A stretch of DNA of 64,000 bases, taken from a virus. Position 1 is the first letter of the stretch; every line of letters starts with the position of its first letter. Positions 1,039 to 62,655 of the stretch are shown piece by piece. The notes beneath the pieces are model-generated. The model saw only the letters and a program-made list of their open reading frames with translations. It was not told the DNA's origin and did not search any database. Both the position numbers and the translations under genes were made by a program. The stretch is from positions 32,001-96,000 of IMG/VR virus record IMGVR_UViG_3300045125_000085; one strand, given 5' to 3'.

Positions 1039-1260
1039 CTACTCGGTACTATCTGACCATTAGCATTTTGCTGCTGTATAGCAGCTATTGCTGGAGGATA
1101 CCGGCCATCCTGACGGCGGTAGTGTGATGACAGATAGTTAGGATCAGCTATCTCCGCATATCTGGATATAGCAGCTTAATGATCTCAGTCAGCGACTGCA
1201 TAAACGGCATCGCGGTACTATACGAGTCTATTACTAAGTACTCAGGGTAGTAAGGAGTCG

Positions 1261-1743
1261 CTAGGATTCGGTAATGCTGAAAAAACGGGTAGCATGGTCG
1301 GTCTCCAGTACGTCTAAGAGTGGGTCTCGACGTAAGCGGTCGTGGCTACGTGTAGCGAATCCTACTGTGTCAGGTAGGTCTAACCACAGGTAGTGGTACA
1401 GCAGGATACCCTCAGGGGCATAGGCACCATGCTGTATCAGTAAATGATAGACACTATCTAGCAGTAGACCTGAACTATCTAACAGTATCTCTAAGCTAGT
1501 AGGTCGTATCGTAGTAGGTACGGTAATCCTCTCTACCGTCTCCATGAAGCAATGCCTCAGTACCGGATAGTCTTCTTCTACTTTAAATATAGCGTACAGA
1601 CTCTCACAAAAGTCATCGACTAAATCACGGTAAGGCGTAGATGATGCTACTGAGGTATTAGCTCTATACAGGCTCAGTAATGGTAGCTCACGCAGATCCA
1701 TAGGAGTCGGTAGGAGTAGGAGTGATCGGGATGGCATGTACAC
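1261..1743 (-). CDS. Hypothetical protein
   Basis: 160-aa ORF with AGGAG RBS, abutting neighbours. Confidence 0.7.
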   Translation of the reverse strand: MYMPSRSLLLLPTPMDLRELPLLSLYRANTSVASSTPYRDLVDDFCESLYAIFKVEEDYPVLRHCFMETVERITVPTTIRPTSLEILLDSSGLLLDSVYHLLIQHGAYAPEGILLYHYLWLDLPDTVGFATRSHDRLRRDPLLDVLETDHATRFFSITES

Positions 1744-1746
1744 CTC

Positions 1747-2154
1747 CTAAGGGTAATGACGTATTAAGTCCTCACGTACTAAAGTGAGGCTATATAGATC
1801 ATGCCATTGATGGAAAATATACCCTGACATATCGGGCAGTACGAGAGCGATATGATCGTAGAGTTCTTTTTGCAGTATCTCTATCAGGAGTTCAAACTGT
1901 AGCTCTAGGTGATCGTAAGTCCAGGAGCGATAGTGGTCAGGATCGTTATAGTCGATGACGGCATTGAGCTGCGAGTAAAAGATTTCGTTTAAGCGATCTT
2001 CGATATTTAAGTACCTAGGGTAGTTTAAGATCGTCTCGACTATATCGCGGAGTGGGTAAAGATCGTAGAGCTCATGGGAGATAGTCTCATACTCACGGAT
2101 CCAGCTCATGTCTAGCATGATGTACCCGAAAGGTCTACGAGTAGGACGGTACAT
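1747..2154 (-). CDS. Hypothetical protein
   Basis: 135-aa ORF, GAGGT RBS. Confidence 0.7.
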   Translation of the reverse strand: MYRPTRRPFGYIMLDMSWIREYETISHELYDLYPLRDIVETILNYPRYLNIEDRLNEIFYSQLNAVIDYNDPDHYRSWTYDHLELQFELLIEILQKELYDHIALVLPDMSGYIFHQWHDLYSLTLVREDLIRHYP

Positions 2155-2245
2155 AGTGCACCTCTTTAATGACAGCGAAGACGACTCGCTCTATGGGAGT
2201 ACTCGAAGCTAGCCGGGTCGAGTAGTTCTAATGAGTAGTCGTCAC

Positions 2246-2914
2246 CTAGGGCGTGCTTAAATTCACGTCTGCGTTCTTTTCAGCTAAAGCTTCTTGTTGC
2301 TTAAGACGAGTCCAGTCTATGATGCGAAAATCCTCAGCTCTATCTATAGTCAGATCTGTCGCATTATTAGTGACGAAGTAGACGTGCCATACTCTATCGG
2401 CGATAAAGTCATCGACTACAGCGATGAGATCTTGGCAGAGGTTTTCTATTTCGTCATAGTCTACTTTAGCTTTACATTCTGGTTTAAATGGAGCGAGGAT
2501 AGAGTGCTTACGGATAGGACTCCACTCATGTCGTACTAGCTCTTGGATACGTATCTTTACGAGTAAGCTAGCAGTCTGTAGAGCACGTACGGGTACTCTA
2601 GGCACAGCACTCAGAAAGCGCTTCTTATTTTGCATCACATACTGCGGTATGATGATACTACTAGTACTATCTAAGATAGACTCTTTAATGTCATCTAGCT
2701 TAGTGATAGGTGTCTGACTAGCATAGCTACTCGGTGTATAGTAGTAGCCTTTCTTAAGTAAAGGCTCAGTACCGTTGAGCATGTAGATGCCAGGCTCTGG
2801 GTCTAGGAACATCGCCTGGTAACGATCTTGCAGTCGTGGGATAAAATCCATGAGCTGGATAATGATCGTCGCTTGAGGTTCTAGCAAAGGTGTGATGTCG
2901 TACAGGTCTTTCAT
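2246..2914 (-). CDS. Hypothetical protein
   Basis: 222-aa ORF, ATGA overlap with upstream gene. Confidence 0.75.
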   Translation of the reverse strand: MKDLYDITPLLEPQATIIIQLMDFIPRLQDRYQAMFLDPEPGIYMLNGTEPLLKKGYYYTPSSYASQTPITKLDDIKESILDSTSSIIIPQYVMQNKKRFLSAVPRVPVRALQTASLLVKIRIQELVRHEWSPIRKHSILAPFKPECKAKVDYDEIENLCQDLIAVVDDFIADRVWHVYFVTNNATDLTIDRAEDFRIIDWTRLKQQEALAEKNADVNLSTP

Positions 2915-3288
2915 ATTCTGCGAACCAAGATGAGTTGCTGATACGTCACGAGTAACTTAACGCGCGTACCATTACTGAACGTGAGCCTATGGCTATCCAG
3001 CCAGGCCGCCATGTGGAGTGTGATCTTATCACGTATAGGTGGAGTGTGATAGATACACTTATAGATGTCGTGGGTAAAGTGGTGAGTGATCTCGATGTAC
3101 TGACCACGCTGCCGGAGTACTTCTATTAAAGCTTCAGTGACTATCCAGTCGAAAGCGAGTTCTATTTGCTCTTCTGATACGGGAGCTGGTAGATGCTGCC
3201 AGAAGCAGTCCTGTATAGTAGGTAGCAATATGGAGCTGATAATAGTGAGATCAGCGATGAAAATCGAGTCAGTGCGGTGAGTGACCAT
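2911..3288 (-). CDS. Hypothetical protein
   Basis: 125-aa ORF, GAGGT RBS. Confidence 0.7.
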   Translation of the reverse strand: MVTHRTDSIFIADLTIISSILLPTIQDCFWQHLPAPVSEEQIELAFDWIVTEALIEVLRQRGQYIEITHHFTHDIYKCIYHTPPIRDKITLHMAAWLDSHRLTFSNGTRVKLLVTYQQLILVRRI

Positions 3289-3372
3289 ACAGTATACCTC
3301 TTAAATCTATCTCATAGGGCGTATGCTTGATTTTTCTGTACAGCCGTGCTAGATAGCGGGTCTAAAAAATAG

Positions 3373-3413
3373 CGGCATAAAACGGTTTAGAGAGGCTTTC
3401 ACCCCTCTAAACC
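3373..3413 (-). terminator. Terminator of phuZ
   Basis: CGGTTTAGAG..CTCTAAACCG stem; minus strand followed by TTTTATGCCGCTATTTTTT. Confidence 0.8.
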
Positions 3414-3426
3414 GCATTTTGCTATA

Positions 3427-4404
3427 TTACAAGATTAGGCCGTGCTCATTCAGCTCTTCATCGAGCTGGATGCGTTTGGTCACAGCACTGGTGACGTGCT
3501 CATCTATATCCTTGATGACCTTGGTCAAGCGTTCCAGTACGGATGGGAAGTATCCTGCTACTGTCACGATGTGGAGTGGCAGATCGACAGTGATAGCATC
3601 CTTGAGCTTATCATCGATATAACCAGTAGCTCTGTAACCGACTGGGATGCCGATGGATGCATCAGTTTGAGCGTCTGAGATCGACACAGCGGAGACTACG
3701 CTATGACCACGTGCTAACTCTACCGTCTTGGAGTAAAACTCCAGGTGGGTCAGCTGAGGATCTACAGCCGTCACTTTCTGATAGTTCAGGAAGTTAGACA
3801 GATCTGCACTATCCAACTCGTGATTCTGACCACTAAAGATAGCAGCCAGCAGTACGATGATGGTCTGGACCTTCTGGTCTACAGACCCTCTAGGAGTAGA
3901 GCTACTATTTTCATAGTAGACCATATTCACCGGCTTTTCGATCTTACGGGCAGTAGCCTCATAGCCCTTCAACGTCTTCGAGGTATTCTCTACCTCGATA
4001 CGACTATCAGTACTACCGATCGTAATGACGATAGTCTGCACATCCTTCTTCAGCAACTCACCTGCTATGATCGGTCCGATGACTGAGCCTGAGCCACCTG
4101 ATGCTGAATGTACAATTACATTCAAGTCACCAGGCTTATAGCGGTGTAAGATTTCCTTAGAGCGTTCAGCGATCGCACCTGCATTGCTGTCACGCTTCTT
4201 ACCACTACCGTCTCTATCTTCGATGAGGTATACTCGCTCATCGTTGATATCCAAGTTAGCCCGCTTAAAGTTACTAGCGGATGTATCTATAAAGACGGGT
4301 CTAAATGTAGCAAACCCGTCCGACGGTTTATCCGCATGCCGCATGAGCTGGCTGACGATGTTGATGCCTGCACCACCGGCTGCGTAAATATTCATTTGGT
4401 TCAT
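3427..4404 (-). CDS. phuZ: Phage tubulin PhuZ (tubulin/FtsZ GTPase)
   Basis: N-terminal AGGAGINI, FIDTS, DGSGKKR, tubulin signature SASGGSGS, acidic C-terminal tail ending GLIL; 325 aa. Confidence 0.93.
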   Translation of the reverse strand: MNQMNIYAAGGAGINIVSQLMRHADKPSDGFATFRPVFIDTSASNFKRANLDINDERVYLIEDRDGSGKKRDSNAGAIAERSKEILHRYKPGDLNVIVHSASGGSGSVIGPIIAGELLKKDVQTIVITIGSTDSRIEVENTSKTLKGYEATARKIEKPVNMVYYENSSSTPRGSVDQKVQTIIVLLAAIFSGQNHELDSADLSNFLNYQKVTAVDPQLTHLEFYSKTVELARGHSVVSAVSISDAQTDASIGIPVGYRATGYIDDKLKDAITVDLPLHIVTVAGYFPSVLERLTKVIKDIDEHVTSAVTKRIQLDEELNEHGLIL

Positions 4405-4931: not shown

Positions 4932-5174
4932 ACTTTTCCTCCATAGGTAATTGAACACATTTAAGCTGCACAGGCAGCTTATAGGATTTTCAATCCTAGT
5001 AATAGGATCTTTGATCCTCAAAGAGCACTAGTGGCGTACGGGTCGGCTAAGCTCATGTTTAGTATATACGGCTAAAATACGCTCGACTCGTAGTCATTGA
5101 GATATAAACCGTACAGCAAAAAGAAAGAGCGCATAGAGGGAGTGGTATAGACCACTCCCTCTAGCTGTTAGCTG

Positions 5175-5438
5175 TTAATCACCATAAAAAATTTTATTCT
5201 TAACAACATGTCTATTTAGCAGACCGTATTTAAACAACGTCTCTTCAATCAGCTTTTCTAAAACTCTATATGCTAGAGTACCTTCTTTACTATTATCAAC
5301 AATAGTAAAGACAAAATCAACAACCATGTCAGCCTTTCTCTCTAAAGAAATTTCATCATTTGTTGGATCTAAAACAGCCATTGCAGCTTCTTTAGTAAGA
5401 CTAATTCTATCCATATAGGCCATTATCATCGCTTCCAT
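5175..5438 (-). CDS. Hypothetical protein
   Basis: 87-aa ORF followed by hairpin terminator 5136-5163. Confidence 0.55.
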   Translation of the reverse strand: MEAMIMAYMDRISLTKEAAMAVLDPTNDEISLERKADMVVDFVFTIVDNSKEGTLAYRVLEKLIEETLFKYGLLNRHVVKNKIFYGD

Positions 5439-5490
5439 GCCGCTAGAAGATACCTGCTCCTCTATTACTTCCTCTACGTTTCTTCCTCCA

Positions 5491-5667
5491 TCACCGCCTC
5501 TTTGCGGCGGTACTTCTATAGTAGGCTAATATAGTCTCTACCATCGACGGCTTGATAGCCTGATTAGCAGGCGTATTCACTACGCTTGCTGTACCGAGGT
5601 TAAGTCCATCATTAGACTCATCCAGTTGCACTACACGTTGCACTACACCGTTGTTCTTAACAGCCAT
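5491..5667 (-). CDS. Small hypothetical protein (putative early gene)
   Basis: GAGGTGG RBS; preceded by GATCTTAGCCTAC motif at 5738-5750. Confidence 0.5.
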   Translation of the reverse strand: MAVKNNGVVQRVVQLDESNDGLNLGTASVVNTPANQAIKPSMVETILAYYRSTAAKRR

Positions 5668-5759
5668 TTTATCCACCTCTATTAGTGATTATTACAAAGT
5701 TACTATCGGCTACATTAGCTTCGTATTGAAAGAGTACGTAGGCTAAGATCACCACTAGT

Positions 5760-6310
5760 ATTTATAACTATAATTAACTCCACTATAAGCTCTATCTAAT
5801 CTTTGCCTAGCACTCGCACTATCGTGCTCATGCACTGCGGCGATAGCTCTCTAGCTTTATTTAATCTCTATTGCACTCGACTACGTCTCATGCGCTGCGT
5901 TAATTGCTAATTTAACATTATCTACTAGCTTGTGTAAAAAATACTGGCACTACATATATTTTGACTGACTTAAATAGCAGGAGGGCGATGGAGTGACTGA
6001 ATAGGAACGAAGGAGACCGACACATACCTGGAAGCAATAGAGCTGCGTGCATATAGCTGACTGCCTACCTATACTAAAAGAAAAGAATAGATAAGCAATC
6101 TAGCCTCATACATACTAGCACTATCCACTACCAAACTAACAATAGATTAGGTACTATAGCTATCTGTTATACTACTCTATCTAGCACTACAGATGCGAAG
6201 CAGTATAAGTATTGGGGGCGTAGCCCCCACTAGTAGTACGATAAAAAAATAGATAAACTATATATCTTTATTAATAAAGATATATTCCTTTAAAGTAAAA
6301 ATAGCTAAGG
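5760..6310. other. AT-rich non-coding divergence region with mini-hairpins (candidate replication origin)
   Basis: No ORF of 60 aa or more; genes diverge; repeated GCACTCG..CTCATGC hairpins, TGCGAAGCA, GGGGGCGTAGCCCCC. Confidence 0.4.
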
Positions 6311-6320
6311 AGCTAGAGAG

Positions 6321-6884
6321 ATGACTACTATCTTAGATTTACAGCCTGAGAGTGAGCAGATTGTAGAGAATAAAGCAGATAGCAAAGAGACAGTATCTCA
6401 GAATACTGTCTCTACTAGTGCTGATGATGATGAGAAAAGTAATAGTGCTAATAAGAGTAAAGATACCATAGTGCTAGATGGACCTTTATCCACTATTTAT
6501 ACTCAAGCGTTACAGATCGCTTATAGTAAAAAAGCTATAGACGCAGAGCATGAGTCAGATATGACGAGTGCAGTCGAAAAGATGGCTATAGATGCGAGTA
6601 TGATGGGCGTGATGGAGGTGATCGATGAGACTGAGAGAGGTAGTGCTAAGCCTTTGTATGTCTATGTGACTGATGATGAGCACTTGGGTGATGGGGCTAC
6701 TGGGGAGGTGTTTGATACTTTGCGGGTGAGTGCTGAGAGTGGGAGGTATAGTGGGGTGTGGTTTTGTACTGAGGATGGGTATAAGTTGGGGCGGAGTCAG
6801 GTGCTGTTGAGTGATTTTGTGTTGGGGTGTGGGGGTAGGGTCTACTATAGCAAAGAGAGCCTGTGGCGGGCTCTAGGAGTCTGA
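6321..6884 (+). CDS. Hypothetical protein, possibly virion head-associated
   Basis: 187-aa acidic ORF, AAGGAG RBS, IVLDGPLSTIYTQAL segment. Confidence 0.7.
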   Translation: MTTILDLQPESEQIVENKADSKETVSQNTVSTSADDDEKSNSANKSKDTIVLDGPLSTIYTQALQIAYSKKAIDAEHESDMTSAVEKMAIDASMMGVMEVIDETERGSAKPLYVYVTDDEHLGDGATGEVFDTLRVSAESGRYSGVWFCTEDGYKLGRSQVLLSDFVLGCGGRVYYSKESLWRALGV

Positions 6885-6885
6885 T

Positions 6886-8112
6886 ATGGCTGGGTTAAAA
6901 GAGGTATTTGATCCTATCTTTGCTAAAGTGAAGTTTAATAGGAGCTTGAGTCATCAGCAGTATTTGTTTCATACTAGCTTTATGAATAAGAATGAGGAGC
7001 ACTTATTGTTTTTGAGTGGGAAGTTGACGGGAGTGCACTTTATTCGGTTTACGCCTAAGGAGTTTGATATCTTTTATAACGATATGCTGGATATCGATGT
7101 AGGTGTGATAAAAGCTGCGGTGAGTACTGTGGAGGCTATCGATCCTCGGTGGGTGGTAGCGAGTGATAGTTTTAATTTAGTCTGTATGTACATGGTGCAT
7201 AGGTGGCTGACTACTCCGGCTTTAGATAATAAAGCTAGGGAGCAGGCAGCTATTAGTGCAGCTTTGATCTTTTTTTATAGATCTGCTGCGGCTATGTTAA
7301 ATGAGTGGTTTAGATATCCGGTCGATGTAGCTTTGGCTGAGGCTACTTATGCTAATTTGAGTAATCGTTATTTGATACGGAAGTTAGAGAGTTGGCAGGA
7401 GGTGCTGATGTATCGAGCTGTGGAGCTGGTGAAGGGCGATAGTGTGCATAGGCGTACCTTTGAGACGTTTAATGACGATTACGCTGTGGTGCAGCTCGTG
7501 AACGATGCTAGAGGGCGTATGGCGGATATCATCAAGAACATCTATGCGGAGATGATGCGTACTCATCAGCGAGGAGAGCGATTACAGACTAGTAAAGATA
7601 CTACGTTGAACATGGATGGAGCTGAAATTTTAAAGGATAAAGTACATGGTCTGACGGATTATACGCAGTACGTGCTGGGGATAATGCATGATGAGGCTAG
7701 TTTCATCAAGAGTGAGTTGATCGATATAGTGAGTAAGATCATGAGCACTATGCAGGTGAGGGGATTTAAGACTAGTCTGGAATGGATGAGTGAGTACTGT
7801 GGGCATCAGCAGTATGGCGTGATCGAGGAGTTTATTAAGTTAGTGTTGATACATAGCTATCATTACTTCTTGACGCATGATAGTGCGGTGATGAATAGTC
7901 GGGATATATCTGGATTGCTAGGACGGTTGAAGAACATTTATGTCAGTAGTCGCAGTAGTGATGCTGATTTGATGAAGCTGAGAGAGCTAGGGAGTGAGAT
8001 AGTAGGTCATGCTACAGGTAAGACTAATGAGCAGACTATGGCGGCTATACGTACTGGATTGATGTTATACATCGTAGTACGGGCTTATACTAAACATCAT
8101 TACAGTGGGTAA
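6886..8112 (+). CDS. Conserved phiKZ-like protein (probably virion-associated)
   Basis: Intact 408-aa ORF, AGGAG RBS; LTGVHFIRF and C-terminal IRTGLMLYIVVRA resemble a conserved phiKZ-like family (from recollection). Confidence 0.7.
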   Translation: MAGLKEVFDPIFAKVKFNRSLSHQQYLFHTSFMNKNEEHLLFLSGKLTGVHFIRFTPKEFDIFYNDMLDIDVGVIKAAVSTVEAIDPRWVVASDSFNLVCMYMVHRWLTTPALDNKAREQAAISAALIFFYRSAAAMLNEWFRYPVDVALAEATYANLSNRYLIRKLESWQEVLMYRAVELVKGDSVHRRTFETFNDDYAVVQLVNDARGRMADIIKNIYAEMMRTHQRGERLQTSKDTTLNMDGAEILKDKVHGLTDYTQYVLGIMHDEASFIKSELIDIVSKIMSTMQVRGFKTSLEWMSEYCGHQQYGVIEEFIKLVLIHSYHYFLTHDSAVMNSRDISGLLGRLKNIYVSSRSSDADLMKLRELGSEIVGHATGKTNEQTMAAIRTGLMLYIVVRAYTKHHYSG

Positions 8113-8115
8113 GAG

Positions 8116-8550
8116 ATGAAGACGGCGATAGAGTTGAGTGAGTTGAATTATGAGTCTTGGTGTGGTACTAGATGGTTATGCTTGAAAGAGTGTAAGAGCT
8201 TGAGTACGGAGCGGTTGTTGTGGTTGTTGGGATTGATGAAGGATGGCGATGTGGAGATCGTGATACCTAGTCATTGCGTATGGGGTACACAGATAGAGAT
8301 AAGACGATGGTTAAGGAGAGAATACTACCTGATGGCTAAGCGGCATAGCGTAGTAGAATTAGTACATTTACACCATACTACCGAGACTGCTATGGGGGAT
8401 GGGATACCTGTGCTGATGGGAGAGACTCATGATGAGTGGGATGAGGTGCTGATGGCGTGGGCGAGTCATATCGCTCGTAAGGTGAAGTTTATAATCATGG
8501 TGAGGCGTGTATGTCGAGAGTCTACCGGATGCGAGTGCCAGATAGGGTGA
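8116..8550 (+). CDS. Hypothetical protein
   Basis: 144-aa ORF starting 3 nt after the previous stop. Confidence 0.6.
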   Translation: MKTAIELSELNYESWCGTRWLCLKECKSLSTERLLWLLGLMKDGDVEIVIPSHCVWGTQIEIRRWLRREYYLMAKRHSVVELVHLHHTTETAMGDGIPVLMGETHDEWDEVLMAWASHIARKVKFIIMVRRVCRESTGCECQIG

Positions 8551-9233
8551 TACCTCTTGTAGATGAGGTAGAGGTCGCATTAGAGGCCGATCAGTACGGG
8601 TTAAAGGATAATTACCTCTACCACTACAGCTTAGAGAAATACGAGTGTCTATTGACCTTAGAGGAGCAATGGAATCGAAAGATCAAAGTGCCTACTAAGG
8701 AAGACTTAGATTACAATACACAGCGTAAAGTCTTTCGGTATGATGAATTTCCGTATAGTCAGCACTTGAGTTTTCTATTAGATCCATTACCAGTAGACAT
8801 TATTGCTAAATTTAAAGGTGGTAATAATAAGCTGTATAATGCTAAGTCGTGTTGGGAGTACAAAATAGATATAGCTGCTTTTAAGGATAATATCAACTAC
8901 TACATGCTAGCTGAGAATGATGTAAATAATTTCTTTGCTTATAATCTTTGGTTAGATGTAGAGTTTCCTGGTAAGCACTTTATGTACTTTAAGACTAGAG
9001 ACTTAATTAATAAGCTAGCTGGTAATATCGGCTACGATTACTTGAGTCTTAGGAGTGCAGTGTTTAAATATAAAGGTAGGACACGTGAGGCTTTTAAGGA
9101 GCTGACTGAGAGCGATGAGTTTGAGTGGGTGAAGACGAAAGGCATGTATGCACCGACGGTACCGCATCTAATGGCGTATCCTAAGATCGGTGTGATCGAG
9201 TATGCTGATGTGAAAAAAATAAAGCTACTGTGA
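8511..9233 (+). CDS. Hypothetical protein
   Basis: 240-aa ORF ending at hairpin 9247-9283. Confidence 0.7.
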   Translation: MSRVYRMRVPDRVIPLVDEVEVALEADQYGLKDNYLYHYSLEKYECLLTLEEQWNRKIKVPTKEDLDYNTQRKVFRYDEFPYSQHLSFLLDPLPVDIIAKFKGGNNKLYNAKSCWEYKIDIAAFKDNINYYMLAENDVNNFFAYNLWLDVEFPGKHFMYFKTRDLINKLAGNIGYDYLSLRSAVFKYKGRTREAFKELTESDEFEWVKTKGMYAPTVPHLMAYPKIGVIEYADVKKIKLL

Positions 9234-9246
9234 AAAGGAAAGGGAG

Positions 9247-9283
9247 ATATAGCCCTGAGAGCACTAAGGCTCTCAGGGCTATA
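9247..9283. terminator. Bidirectional terminator between convergent genes
   Basis: ATATAGCCCTGAGAGC..GCTCTCAGGGCTATAT. Confidence 0.85.
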
Positions 9284-9293
9284 TGACGGCTAT

Positions 9294-13185: not shown

Positions 13186-13223
13186 CATATAGCCAGGAGA
13201 GCATGATGCTCTCCTGGCTATGC
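13186..13223. terminator. Bidirectional terminator
   Basis: ATAGCCAGGAGAGCAT-G-ATGCTCTCCTGGCTAT with GCATA/TATGC flanks. Confidence 0.85.
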
Positions 13224-32259: not shown

Positions 32260-32668
32260 CCCAATGTCCACGTCTATCCTAGACGCCGGTGCGCAATGAC
32301 ACCCGCCCTGAGTTTCTTCAGGGGGCAGACTATCTCATTACCCTCGCCTCTTCTTGTGGAATAGCGGTCGGGTACTTCCCATTTCGACGCACACTCCTAG
32401 TGCTGTCTACGCCTTGCTGAAGGGCTAGTCGTTGAGCCTACCTCATGCCCTTTTGGGGTTTAGAGGCTTCGCTGCGTGGTTGCCCAATCCTAACCATGCC
32501 GTAATACGACAGGGACTTTTTGACCCGTCACGCTCGCCTTTCAGGCCACGTTGTGGGGGGTTAGGCTCTAAGGGTATTCCCGCAATTAGGAAGGCACTCA
32601 TCTCAGTTTACACCGAGAGAGGGACAATAGTAAGAAAATATGCTACATCATATTAAGCTTACTCTAGT
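32260..32668 (-). ncRNA. Group I self-splicing intron (IA-like), 409 nt, no ORF
   Basis: 5' exon ends in U, intron ends in G; P AATTGCGGGAA, Q-like GGCAACCACGCAGC, R GGCTCAACGACTA, S GAGATAGTC; P9 hairpin; splicing restores DCDFDGD. Confidence 0.9.
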
Positions 32669-34114
32669 ATCGCAGTCAAGACGGCTTAAATGAGGGAGAG
32701 CAGGTGACATAGCGTTTACCCCACCTTCACCCCGTATAGGAAACTCAGGAGCTACTACCTCAGTCTTTTCCCAGCTACTGTCTAATAAGTAGCGTACCTC
32801 AGTCCTCGCTGTCGCTTTGACATGTGGGTAACTCGGGTAGATGCTACCAAACCCAGTAACAGGATAACGCGTCACGTAGCCTGGTAAAGTCGGTGCTCGT
32901 TGAAAGACCGAGATATACAGTAACTCACAAAAGCTCACAGGACGTACATCAGCTCGATTACGCTCAGGTGGTAGTTCATCTATATCTTGGAATAACCTAA
33001 ACGTACCATCTGGCCCAGTATATAAAAGACCAAAATAGCCTTCAGGTAATTCGAGCACATTATGTCTAAGCTCTTCCTCACCAAAGCGATTCAAGACTTT
33101 CTGTAAGCCTTCGTTAGTCATCCACTCATCGTAGACATAACTAGCGACATCTACCCATTTCGGCTTTAAGGTCTTTTTATCGACTAAGACAGCCGGTGAG
33201 TTAGGTCCTTGAAACACTTGACTTAGAAAGCCATTCCTGATATCAAAGAAGACTATAGGTAAAGCACTCTTAAGAAACTGATAGAGTCCTATCACTGACT
33301 GATTAGGATCTAGCAATCTAGGTGAGTCTAAGCTATCGACTTTCTGGATCAGTGCGGTAGCTACATTACGCGTACTGTTAAAGATCTTGCGTGAAGCCCA
33401 CTTACCTAAGATCATTTTACCTTTGCCTTCCATCATCCCTCTAAAGTAATCGTAGATTTCTATAAAGGTCTCTTGCATCTGGTAGCGTACGACATCCATA
33501 GACTCAGGATTATTCTTCAAAGCAGCCGGATCTATCATACCGGCTAAGGAGATCATGCGTTTATATGGCTTATTGATCTCACCTTCTGAAGGTTTACCAT
33601 CTTCATCATACTCGTAGTCTCTTAAACCTGCCGGCAAGATGATTAGCTTATCGATCAGAGGTTGTTCCCTATACTTCTCCACTAGCTTAATGTTAAACTG
33701 TCTAAGTGGACTAGCTCTAGTCTCGAACACGAGCTCACCAAAATGCTCTAAGAAGAAAGTATAGCCTGTACGACCCTCCATAGGCGTAGACTTAATAAAG
33801 TCTCTATTCGTAGCATCCCAGAGAGCATAGCCTTTACCTGAAATAATATCTGCATACAGCTGCTTTAATTCCTTAATGGCTTTAAACAGTACGGGATGCA
33901 GTAGTCCTATATTTAAGCGTACGTAGGAGAAAGTACGGTTACGGCGCTCATCGCCGACTTTACCAAAGATCTCAGTGCTGAATAAGCCGTTAGCTCTATA
34001 GGTACGAGTAGACGGCTCGAAAGTATCGATCGTGGTGACTGGCGGGATACTGCGCACCATCTCCTCAGTCGGTATGAGGATATTGATATTAAAAGGTAGC
34101 ATGTTTACTGACAT
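32669..34114 (-). CDS. Virion RNA polymerase beta'-like subunit (phiKZ gp180-like), exon 1
   Basis: GLFSTEIFG, ILPAGLRD, KWASRKIFNSTRNV, TRYPV; ends ..HLSRLDCD at the intron. Confidence 0.9.
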
Positions 34115-34155
34115 AGTAGCCCTCAAATCGTTTGAATTATTTAGGAGTTTGTATC

Positions 34156-62614: not shown

Positions 62615-62655
62615 CATAGTGCCCTGAGAGCTCTATAGCTCTCAGGGCACTATGC
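62615..62655. terminator. Bidirectional terminator
   Basis: CATAGTGCCCTGAGAGCT..AGCTCTCAGGGCACTATG. Confidence 0.85.

Follow-up and report, generated by a model that had tools for sequence, protein, structure and literature searches.

The divergent intergenic region

The 64,000-nt stretch of DNA analysed here (the window) belongs to a contig of 144 kb, probably incomplete, from an uncultured Chimalliviridae-like (phiKZ-like, nucleus-forming) jumbo phage, which encodes a PhuZ tubulin (3427-4404, minus strand), a transglycosylase and the beta subunit of a multisubunit RNA polymerase (32648-34126). Among cultured phages, Burkholderia phage FLC9 matches it best (38% amino-acid identity). Within the window, a non-coding gap (5677-6320; 37% G+C, nearly the most AT-rich ORF-free gap of the contig) lies between a gene on the minus strand (5491-5676) and one on the plus strand (6321-6884), in agreement with an earlier sequence-only reading that placed it at a gene divergence. 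The same reading took it for the longest ORF-free stretch, which needs correction: the gap ranks third in the contig and second in the window. To its left are two small leftward genes (87 and 61 aa; 5175-5676, minus strand) without Pfam or PHROG match, in a unit closed by a terminator-like hairpin at 5134-5163, and to its right is an operon encoding proteins of 187, 408, 144 and 240 aa (6321-9233, plus strand) that ends at a terminator hairpin (9247-9284). The 408-aa protein (6886-8112, plus strand) corresponds to phrog_2921 and is conserved in 290 phiKZ-like phage records, and the predicted structure of the 187-aa protein, with a pLDDT of 36, is too poor to be used. Neither a Pfam or PHROG function for the flanking proteins nor an initiator or primase gene nearby was found.

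The standard genetic code holds for the contig. An alternative code filling the gap was rejected, since ORF coverage rises about equally whichever of the three stop codons is recoded, and a hidden small gene was rejected because no credible or conserved small ORF is present: the gap holds no ORF of at least 20 codons with a ribosome-binding site and no peptide that is conserved in relatives. No tRNA was found in the window, and the best Rfam 15 matches, both in the window and in L020 (one of the distant relatives described below), scored far under the gathering scores. No nucleotide match was found in the phage collection, and the exact extended hairpin motif described below had none among the viral contigs searched.

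Two promoter-like boxes stand back to back in the gap. The leftward, early-type box, P_L (5738-5792, minus strand), carries the invariant GATCTTAGCCTAC tag of a family with about ten copies in the genome; an HMM of this early promoter plus leader, built from eight strong copies in the genome, matches P_L at E=5e-9, and the box occurs at the same place in three related metagenomic phages (L208, L212 and L211). The rightward box, P_nc (5949-5965, plus strand; ACTACATATATTTTGAC), is conserved in the window, L212, L208, L211 and a fourth relative, L001. Its sequence is similar to CATATAC-TTAGAATGA, the core of the early promoters, but the family HMM gives it no score. Immediately to its left is an AT-rich spacer (5900-5948) that separates the minus- and plus-strand halves of the region and has A/T-run-rich equivalents in all four relatives. 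Downstream of P_nc, a Shine-Dalgarno sequence and ATG (AGCAGGAGGGCGATG; 5976-5996, plus strand) open a mini-ORF of two codons (ATG GAG TGA). This 15-mer is identical in the window, L212 (1214-1230) and L208 (1881-1897), where it opens ORFs of 2, 26 and 4 codons, respectively; a strong ribosome-binding site with its ATG is conserved as a start signal and the peptide is not.

Further to the right, the 13-mer AAgAATAGATAAg occurs four times on the plus strand (6083-6309; starts at 6083, 6138, 6245 and 6297), with spacings of 55, 107 and 52 nt that correspond to about 5 and 10 helical turns. Four copies were reached in 3 of 200 dinucleotide shuffles, and the arrangement suggests a possible protein-binding array. 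A perfect 26-bp palindrome of A and T only (6260-6285) lies in the presumed promoter region of the gene at 6321-6884; L208 has a partly similar sequence at about 2009-2032.

The usual terminator type of the contig is a long GCATAG...CTATGC hairpin followed by TATGC. At least 12 such hairpins share the form GCATAG[T/C]GCCCTGAGAGC ... GCTCTCAGGGC..CTATGC followed by TATGC(C/T)G, for example at 211-252, 9247-9284, 13189-13221 and 62615-62654 of the window. Judged by its sequence, this family is the phage's version of the phiKZ terminator motif, a hairpin followed by TTAT (PMC10914365).

A covarying family of GA hairpins

All five hairpins listed in the sequence-only reading are present at the coordinates and on the strands it gave. 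Two are on the minus strand, between P_L and P_nc: unit c1 (5810-5848) consists of GCAT-GA-GCAC[GATA]GTGC-GA-GTGC (5810-5833) with the 5' flank AGCTATCGCCGCAGT and starts 18 nt upstream of the P_L box, and unit c2 (5873-5899) consists of GCAT-GA-GAC[GTA]GTC-GA-GTGC (5873-5893) with the 5' flank CGCAGC. The other three are on the plus strand and comprise the short hairpin c4, GT-GA-CT[GAAT]AG-GA-AC (5993-6008), the mini-hairpin TGC[GAA]GCA (6194-6202) and the GC clamp hairpin TGGGGGC[GTA]GCCCCCA (6213-6229). That list had left out a third full copy, c3 (6530-6571, plus strand), with the hairpin GCAT-GA-GTCA[GATA]TGAC-GA-GTGC (6548-6571) and a 5' flank ending in CGCAGA, which lies inside the ORF at 6321-6884, within the part of the 187-aa gene that encodes a variable linker (aa 70-86).

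Read on their own strand, c1 and c2 both have the form CGCAG-N-GCATGAG-[stem-loop]-CGAGTGC. Unit c3 has the same flanks and an inner stem that is different yet complementary, sharing 32 of 41 nt with c1. The family motif can be written as CGCAG-N-[4 bp ending in U.G]-GA-[G-C stem, GNA/GNNA loop]-GA-[4 bp]; among its C-GNA-G closed loops GTA occurs in seven copies, with GAA and GCA also represented, and GATA loops occur too. On its own, the generic stem-GA-stem design is barely enriched genome-wide, with 17 occurrences among the matches listed (13 distinct sites) versus about 5.7 in shuffles. The GCATGA...GAGTGC frame occurs five times in the contig versus about 0.3 expected by our own estimate; three of the five have perfect inner stems, and all three lie within 760 bp. 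GA hairpins in the gap number three versus 0.23 expected. When folded with RNA parameters, the GA strands of the three full units give -12.8, -7.9 and -11.0 kcal/mol (z -2.2 to -4.0), about 5 kcal/mol better than the complementary strands (-7.8, -3.6 and -5.4); the energies obtained with DNA parameters are small (-5.5, -2.0 and -4.3). No larger common fold was found around the units.

The closer relatives came from a search with the 187-aa neighbour rather than with the 408-aa protein. All four (L208, L212, L211 and L001) keep the order of one to four minus-strand units, AT-rich spacer and plus-strand hairpins, so that the mirror arrangement around the spacer described in the earlier reading is maintained, as are the stem-GA-stem design and its strandedness, with compensatory changes. 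L208, whose 187-aa protein is about 80% identical, has four minus-strand units with GTAT...GTAC flanks, a short hairpin AC-GA-CT[GGTA]AG-GA-GT and the clamp GGGGGGGC[GTA]GCCCCCCC. L212 (62% identity) has two minus-strand units, GCAT-GA-GTC[GTA]GAC-GA-GTGC, a short hairpin GT-GA-CT[GGA]AG-GA-AC and a clamp with a GCA loop. L001 and L211 (about 60% identity) each have one minus-strand unit with new stems, a long plus-strand GCATGAG...CGAGTGC element and a GAA-loop clamp followed by a T-run. The intragenic copy c3 is identical and at the same offset in L208, L209 and L210; the homologous place in L211 is occupied by a different GA hairpin, and L001 and L212 have no hairpin at this place in the 187-aa gene. 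In the window and in L208, L212, L211 and L001, every copy is in the sense orientation of flanking-gene transcription.

In an alignment of eight distinct full units from five phages, 61 of 61 scorable base-pair positions are paired. Six of the eight pairs changed on both sides and none on one side only, amounting to 18 compensatory changes without a single G-U intermediate. The U.G pair, the tandem GA/AG and the adjoining G-C core are invariant across the eight copies, and none of 500 shuffles matched these pairing and covariation values. Because related phages keep the hairpins through matching base changes, we conclude that, as judged from comparative data, they are real and functional. In addition, the flanks are kept and the inner stems differ at every position, which points to sequence-specific recognition of the folded element. 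Neither an Rfam family nor a paper in the literature searched describes such an element, and the hairpins form a real, conserved and apparently undescribed family of cis-elements with a mirror layout.

A CRISPR mini-array, REP/BIME elements, IS200-type ends, an invertible segment and a MITE were considered and rejected, since the copies differ by compensatory changes, one copy lies in frame in a conserved gene and no matching enzyme is present nearby.

Alternatively, the units could be ordinary terminators or insulators, or remnants of duplication that have no function themselves. Early promoter boxes in this genome as a rule have a hairpin directly upstream, and one reading frame of c1, c2 and c3 gives similar peptides (AI.A.HE), a possible hint of a duplicated gene fragment. 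However, the sequence 3' of the GA units on their own strand is A-rich and lacks the TATGC or TTAT tail typical of the terminators of this phage and of phiKZ (PMC10914365), and the minus-strand frames contain stop codons. Moreover, a decaying duplicate would not yield complete pairing, six covarying pairs and an invariant mismatch core in five phages. We therefore regard this explanation as very improbable.

Plus-strand hairpins and the distant module

The short hairpin c4 has almost no stability when folded alone (-1.3 as RNA and 0 as DNA). It has homologues with covarying stems in L212, L208 and a more distant relative, L037, in which it reads GT-GA-GC[TTCA]GC-GA-AC. The mini-hairpin ends 10 nt before the clamp, and a GCGAAGC core is found at the equivalent place in L208 and FLC9. 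The clamp itself is strong (z about -3 to -3.7), conserved and of a type that is unique in the contig, differing from the usual GCATAG...CTATGC terminator. In its relatives it is terminator-like, being followed by a T-run in L001, L211, L037 and FLC9; the window clamp has none. Since the clamp 15-mer occurs in more than 120 unrelated contigs, it is too common to serve as a probe.

In distant relatives, a GA hairpin and, 16-30 nt beyond it, a GC-rich GAA-triloop hairpin recur on one strand near phuZ and the 408-aa gene. This module was found by a descriptor scan, a covariance model having been dropped since MAFFT misaligned the short hairpins, and its carriers are L037, L072, L122/L059, the FLC9 group and a clade that includes Pseudomonas phage pPa_SNUABM_DT01. 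In FLC9 itself, which infects Burkholderia glumae, the region concerned is at about 13.75-14.47 kb of LC667451. The chance of a GA hairpin in the 68 nt preceding a GAA hairpin is 0.027, and one was seen in five of nine lineages (p about 2e-6). Since the lineages are related, this argues that the module has been conserved, not that it arose independently. The L037 (203 kb) and L072 (165 kb) records each contain a single copy of the GAA clamp. No GA hairpin plus clamp was found at the syntenic place in RSL2, Noxifer, PS119XW or the phiKZ-like KTN4; the GAA clamp is absent from a phiKZ-type genome, and phiKZ lacks the module. One distant clade has the module between co-directional genes.

In the DT01 clade, the module closes a purine-rich, conserved non-coding unit of about 200 nt that has a TGTATAGTATG box at its start, containing TATG, the phiKZ late-promoter core, and a further covarying stem. 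This element, which combines an 8-bp stem of the AGACTAAT/ATTAGTCT type with the GA hairpin and the GAA-triloop hairpin, is located at 3440-3700 in L020, 3462-3720 in L025, 3125-3400 in L017 and 119605-119830 in MW735835, the record of pPa_SNUABM_DT01, in which it is unannotated.

Two further features of these relatives were observed. A G-run, AGA and a second G-run directly precede or form the 5' arm of the GAA clamp in L037 (4222-4252), L072 (4212-4240) and L001 (5322-5350). This order recalls, as a resemblance only, the G-rich conserved sequence block II of mitochondrial DNA, at which transcription terminates and the transcripts serve as replication primers. The phuZ homologue of L072 is split (1211-3885), with residues 116-326 encoded at 1211-1846, residues 1-94 at 3622-3885 and a 411-aa ORF (1972-3207) in between, which looks like an intron or a mobile insertion.

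Taken with the sequences upstream of them, the plus-strand hairpins of the window fall inside a predicted short transcript. The plus-strand half probably exists as RNA, since it lies downstream of a conserved promoter-like box and a Shine-Dalgarno sequence with ATG and has a terminator-like end in relatives.

Possible action on transcripts, at promoters or in replication

The reading that we prefer, tentatively and by analogy with the lambda N system, is that the hairpins are cis-acting RNA sites on diverging transcripts, read by one phage factor. The gap would be a conserved control hub between the back-to-back early-type boxes, P_L leftward and P_nc rightward, and the working part of each site would comprise the single-stranded CG-N-AG word, the 4-bp stem with its invariant U.G end, the tandem sheared G.A pairs, the invariant G-C pair, the free stem and the GNA/GNNA loop. 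P_nc would direct synthesis of a short leader RNA that carries the ribosome-binding site, the mini-ORF and the short GA hairpin and ends at the GC clamp, which would serve as a terminator or attenuator ahead of the 187/408-aa operon. Unit c3 may act within the mRNA of that operon, and the left array may act on a leftward transcript (its promoter was not found).

Several observations favor such an RNA-level role. All eight copies pair, with most pairs covarying around an invariant core, and their RNA fold energies are good. The plus-strand hairpins follow the P_nc box in five phages and the identical Shine-Dalgarno/ATG 15-mer in three; L001 and L211 carry a full-flank GCATGAG...CGAGTGC hairpin inside the same plus-strand unit; c3 is on the sense strand of an mRNA; and in distant clades the GA hairpin and GAA hairpin close a discrete unit. 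From the observed hairpin family, its covariation, strandedness and layout and the promoter-like boxes we infer transcription, a binding factor and a regulatory outcome.

Lambda nut sites are composed of boxA and boxB, and the HK022 put RNAs are comparable. Like these, the elements described here combine a short linear word with a small hairpin that has a purine-rich loop closed by a sheared G.A pair, and they are found in mirror-placed copies on two diverging early units, one of them after the start of the first rightward gene. The sequences, however, are unrelated, and boxB lacks a tandem G.A internal loop. The plus-strand copies are downstream of P_nc, as nut function requires, whereas the left copies are upstream of the sole leftward promoter box found. 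Neither an N-like factor nor another RNA-binding protein was identified.

The published RNAs of cultured relatives provide a second comparison. In phiKZ and 201phi2-1, many short RNAs arise by termination at promoter-proximal sites (PMC10914365, PMC11512511); these phages are of the same family, their short non-coding units likewise run from a promoter to a GC-rich hairpin, and a TTAT-like tail comes after the hairpin in several relatives. In contrast, the published conserved sRNA is upstream of the tail gene gp182, phiKZ is without the module, and the clamp described here is single-copy with a conserved GAA/GTA triloop rather than a genome-wide terminator motif.

Other observations weigh against action in RNA. 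The minus-strand units are upstream of P_L, between the boxes, and a promoter from which they could be transcribed was not found with the family HMM; a further leftward promoter right of c2, suggested by a resemblance seen by eye, was rejected because the family HMM does not support it, and a minus-strand TATG-type promoter was rejected since it is not conserved in L208 or L212. The window clamp has no T-run, and G-U intermediates are missing among the compensatory changes. C-GNA-G loops are a hallmark of very stable DNA mini-hairpins, and to our knowledge they are not especially stable in RNA. Finally, the first minus-strand unit starts 15-18 nt upstream of the P_L box in the window, L208 and L212, and a spacing fixed in this way looks like coupling at the level of DNA.

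One form that such coupling could take is that of the promoters of the N4 virion RNA polymerase, in which DNA hairpins extruded by supercoiling control or start transcription. By this analogy, the units, which belong to the strand that serves as template when transcription runs rightward and which sit just upstream of P_L, would be extruded by negative supercoiling between the divergent promoters, and a polymerase or factor bound to them would switch both promoters on or off or start RNA at CGCAG. The hairpins of N4 promoters have 5-7 bp and a 3-nt loop containing a sheared G:A pair; their contact bases are conserved, the other stem bases are free as long as they pair, and transcription starts on the template strand 5' of the hairpin (PMC4496689). 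The hairpins described here are alike in being small and strand-specific, with short GTA, GATA, GAA or GCA loops (a purine triloop closed by sheared G:A in the GNA forms), few invariant contacts and stem positions that only pair, so that the same logic is seen in the covariation around an invariant core; negative supercoiling at the site and a start region that lies, on the folded strand, 5' of the hairpin would also be shared. The fixed distance to P_L and the location between back-to-back boxes fit as well. They differ from N4 in their tandem G.A and U.G pairs within the stem and in their arrays of one to four units with mirror copies, and they are known here from sequence. In addition, this phage encodes a multisubunit RNA polymerase, whereas the N4 mechanism is known for a single-subunit enzyme only, and c3 is inside a gene. 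Since the other boxes of the P_L family have ordinary terminator hairpins at the upstream place, the position of the units may simply be where a hairpin sits. We consider an N4-like mechanism distinctly unlikely.

A role in replication was the proposal of the sequence-only reading, which took the gap for a candidate bidirectional origin. The first check that it proposed, a comparison with the syntenic region of related phages, was clearly positive, in that design, strandedness and mirror layout are conserved, but the plus-strand half is probably RNA, an outcome that the proposal itself had named as counting against it. The proposal is thus partly supported and is not the only good reading. It had also spoken of priming, replication initiation or packaging; the geometry fits priming signals, and evidence for packaging is lacking. 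Each hairpin is on the strand that would serve as lagging-strand template if a bubble opened in the spacer, and each full unit has CGCAG on its 5' side, the conserved single-stranded sequence at which synthesis on the folded template would begin. In an origin of this kind, the AT-rich spacer would open, the GA/GNA hairpins would fold on the exposed lagging-strand templates, minus strand to the left and plus strand to the right, and would guide a primase or initiator to the adjacent CGCAG as its start point, with the primed strands running through the center. Alternatively, a purine-rich P_nc transcript might be kept as an R-loop that primes DNA synthesis, as at T4 oriF or in ColE1.

The single-strand initiation signals ssiA and ssiB of RSF1010 and the complementary-strand origins of phages G4 and phiX174 are the closest comparison for such an origin. 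They resemble the present arrangement in having opposite-strand hairpins beside an AT-rich region, each folding on one strand only, and in their GCGAAGC-type mini-hairpins; they differ in that here one copy is in a coding gene and the plus-strand set is in a probable transcript. The mirror layout around an A/T-run-rich spacer in five phages, the iteron-like variation in unit copy number from one to four, the spacing of the four 13-mers at about 5 and 10 helical turns and the clamp that is single-copy in two relatives' records are all consistent with an origin. So are the location of the units between divergent promoters, where the twin-domain model predicts underwound DNA, the apparently untranscribed left array, and the C-GNA-G loops and sheared G.A pairs, which suit DNA, in stems without G-T intermediates.

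Strand composition also bears on this question. At third codon positions, G exceeds C and T exceeds C (skew +0.3 to +0.6), and on either side this excess is directed away from the gap. The coding-sense GC skew at these positions is +0.59, +0.57, +0.62 and +0.31 in the four rightward genes (T/(T+C) 0.70-0.82) and +0.60 and +0.29 in the two small leftward genes, whereas the mean over the genome is 0.025 (sd 0.19), so that the flanking genes are three-sd outliers; T is preferred to C at 0.66-0.91 in the six. L001 has the same G/T skew, stronger on the left side, and distant relatives do not. Beyond the operon, two minus-strand genes retain the plus-strand G excess. Deamination of single-stranded lagging-strand templates at an origin would produce such a pattern. 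Very heavy divergent transcription would explain it equally well, because the skewed zones stop at transcription-unit boundaries (the hairpins at 5134-5163 and 9247-9284). The genome-wide cumulative GC skew, a check proposed in the earlier reading, does not single out the gap: it has a local minimum here, one of many local extremes that track gene orientation, and its lowest point falls at the end of the contig, which is incomplete.

Further points speak against an origin. The plus-strand half seems to be transcribed and includes a ribosome-binding site, the energies of folding with DNA parameters are small, no initiator or primase was found nearby among flanking proteins that lack a family match, the module is between co-directional genes in one distant clade and phiKZ is without it. 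The literature searched contains no defined origin for phiKZ-like phages. On balance, we view an origin, the R-loop variant included, as possible though rather questionable. A more specific form, in which the gap is the origin of a lineage of nucleus-forming jumbo phages, with mirror-arranged template-strand GA/GNA hairpins between divergent early promoters, and the GA hairpin plus GAA clamp near phuZ is the ancestral Chimalliviridae origin core, is doubtful.

Whether the hairpins act as RNA sites, as we tentatively prefer, or in DNA, few cis-acting elements of nucleus-forming jumbo phages are understood. The result is a compact hairpin motif backed by covariation, with a fixed layout and a single-copy module common to distant members of the family, and the module has cultured carriers in Burkholderia phage FLC9 and Pseudomonas phage pPa_SNUABM_DT01. 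The extreme local G/T skew may record how long the DNA of this region spends single-stranded. If the element acts in RNA, it would be a new structured phage RNA motif; if the origin reading were true, it would be the first sequence-defined origin for Chimalliviridae.
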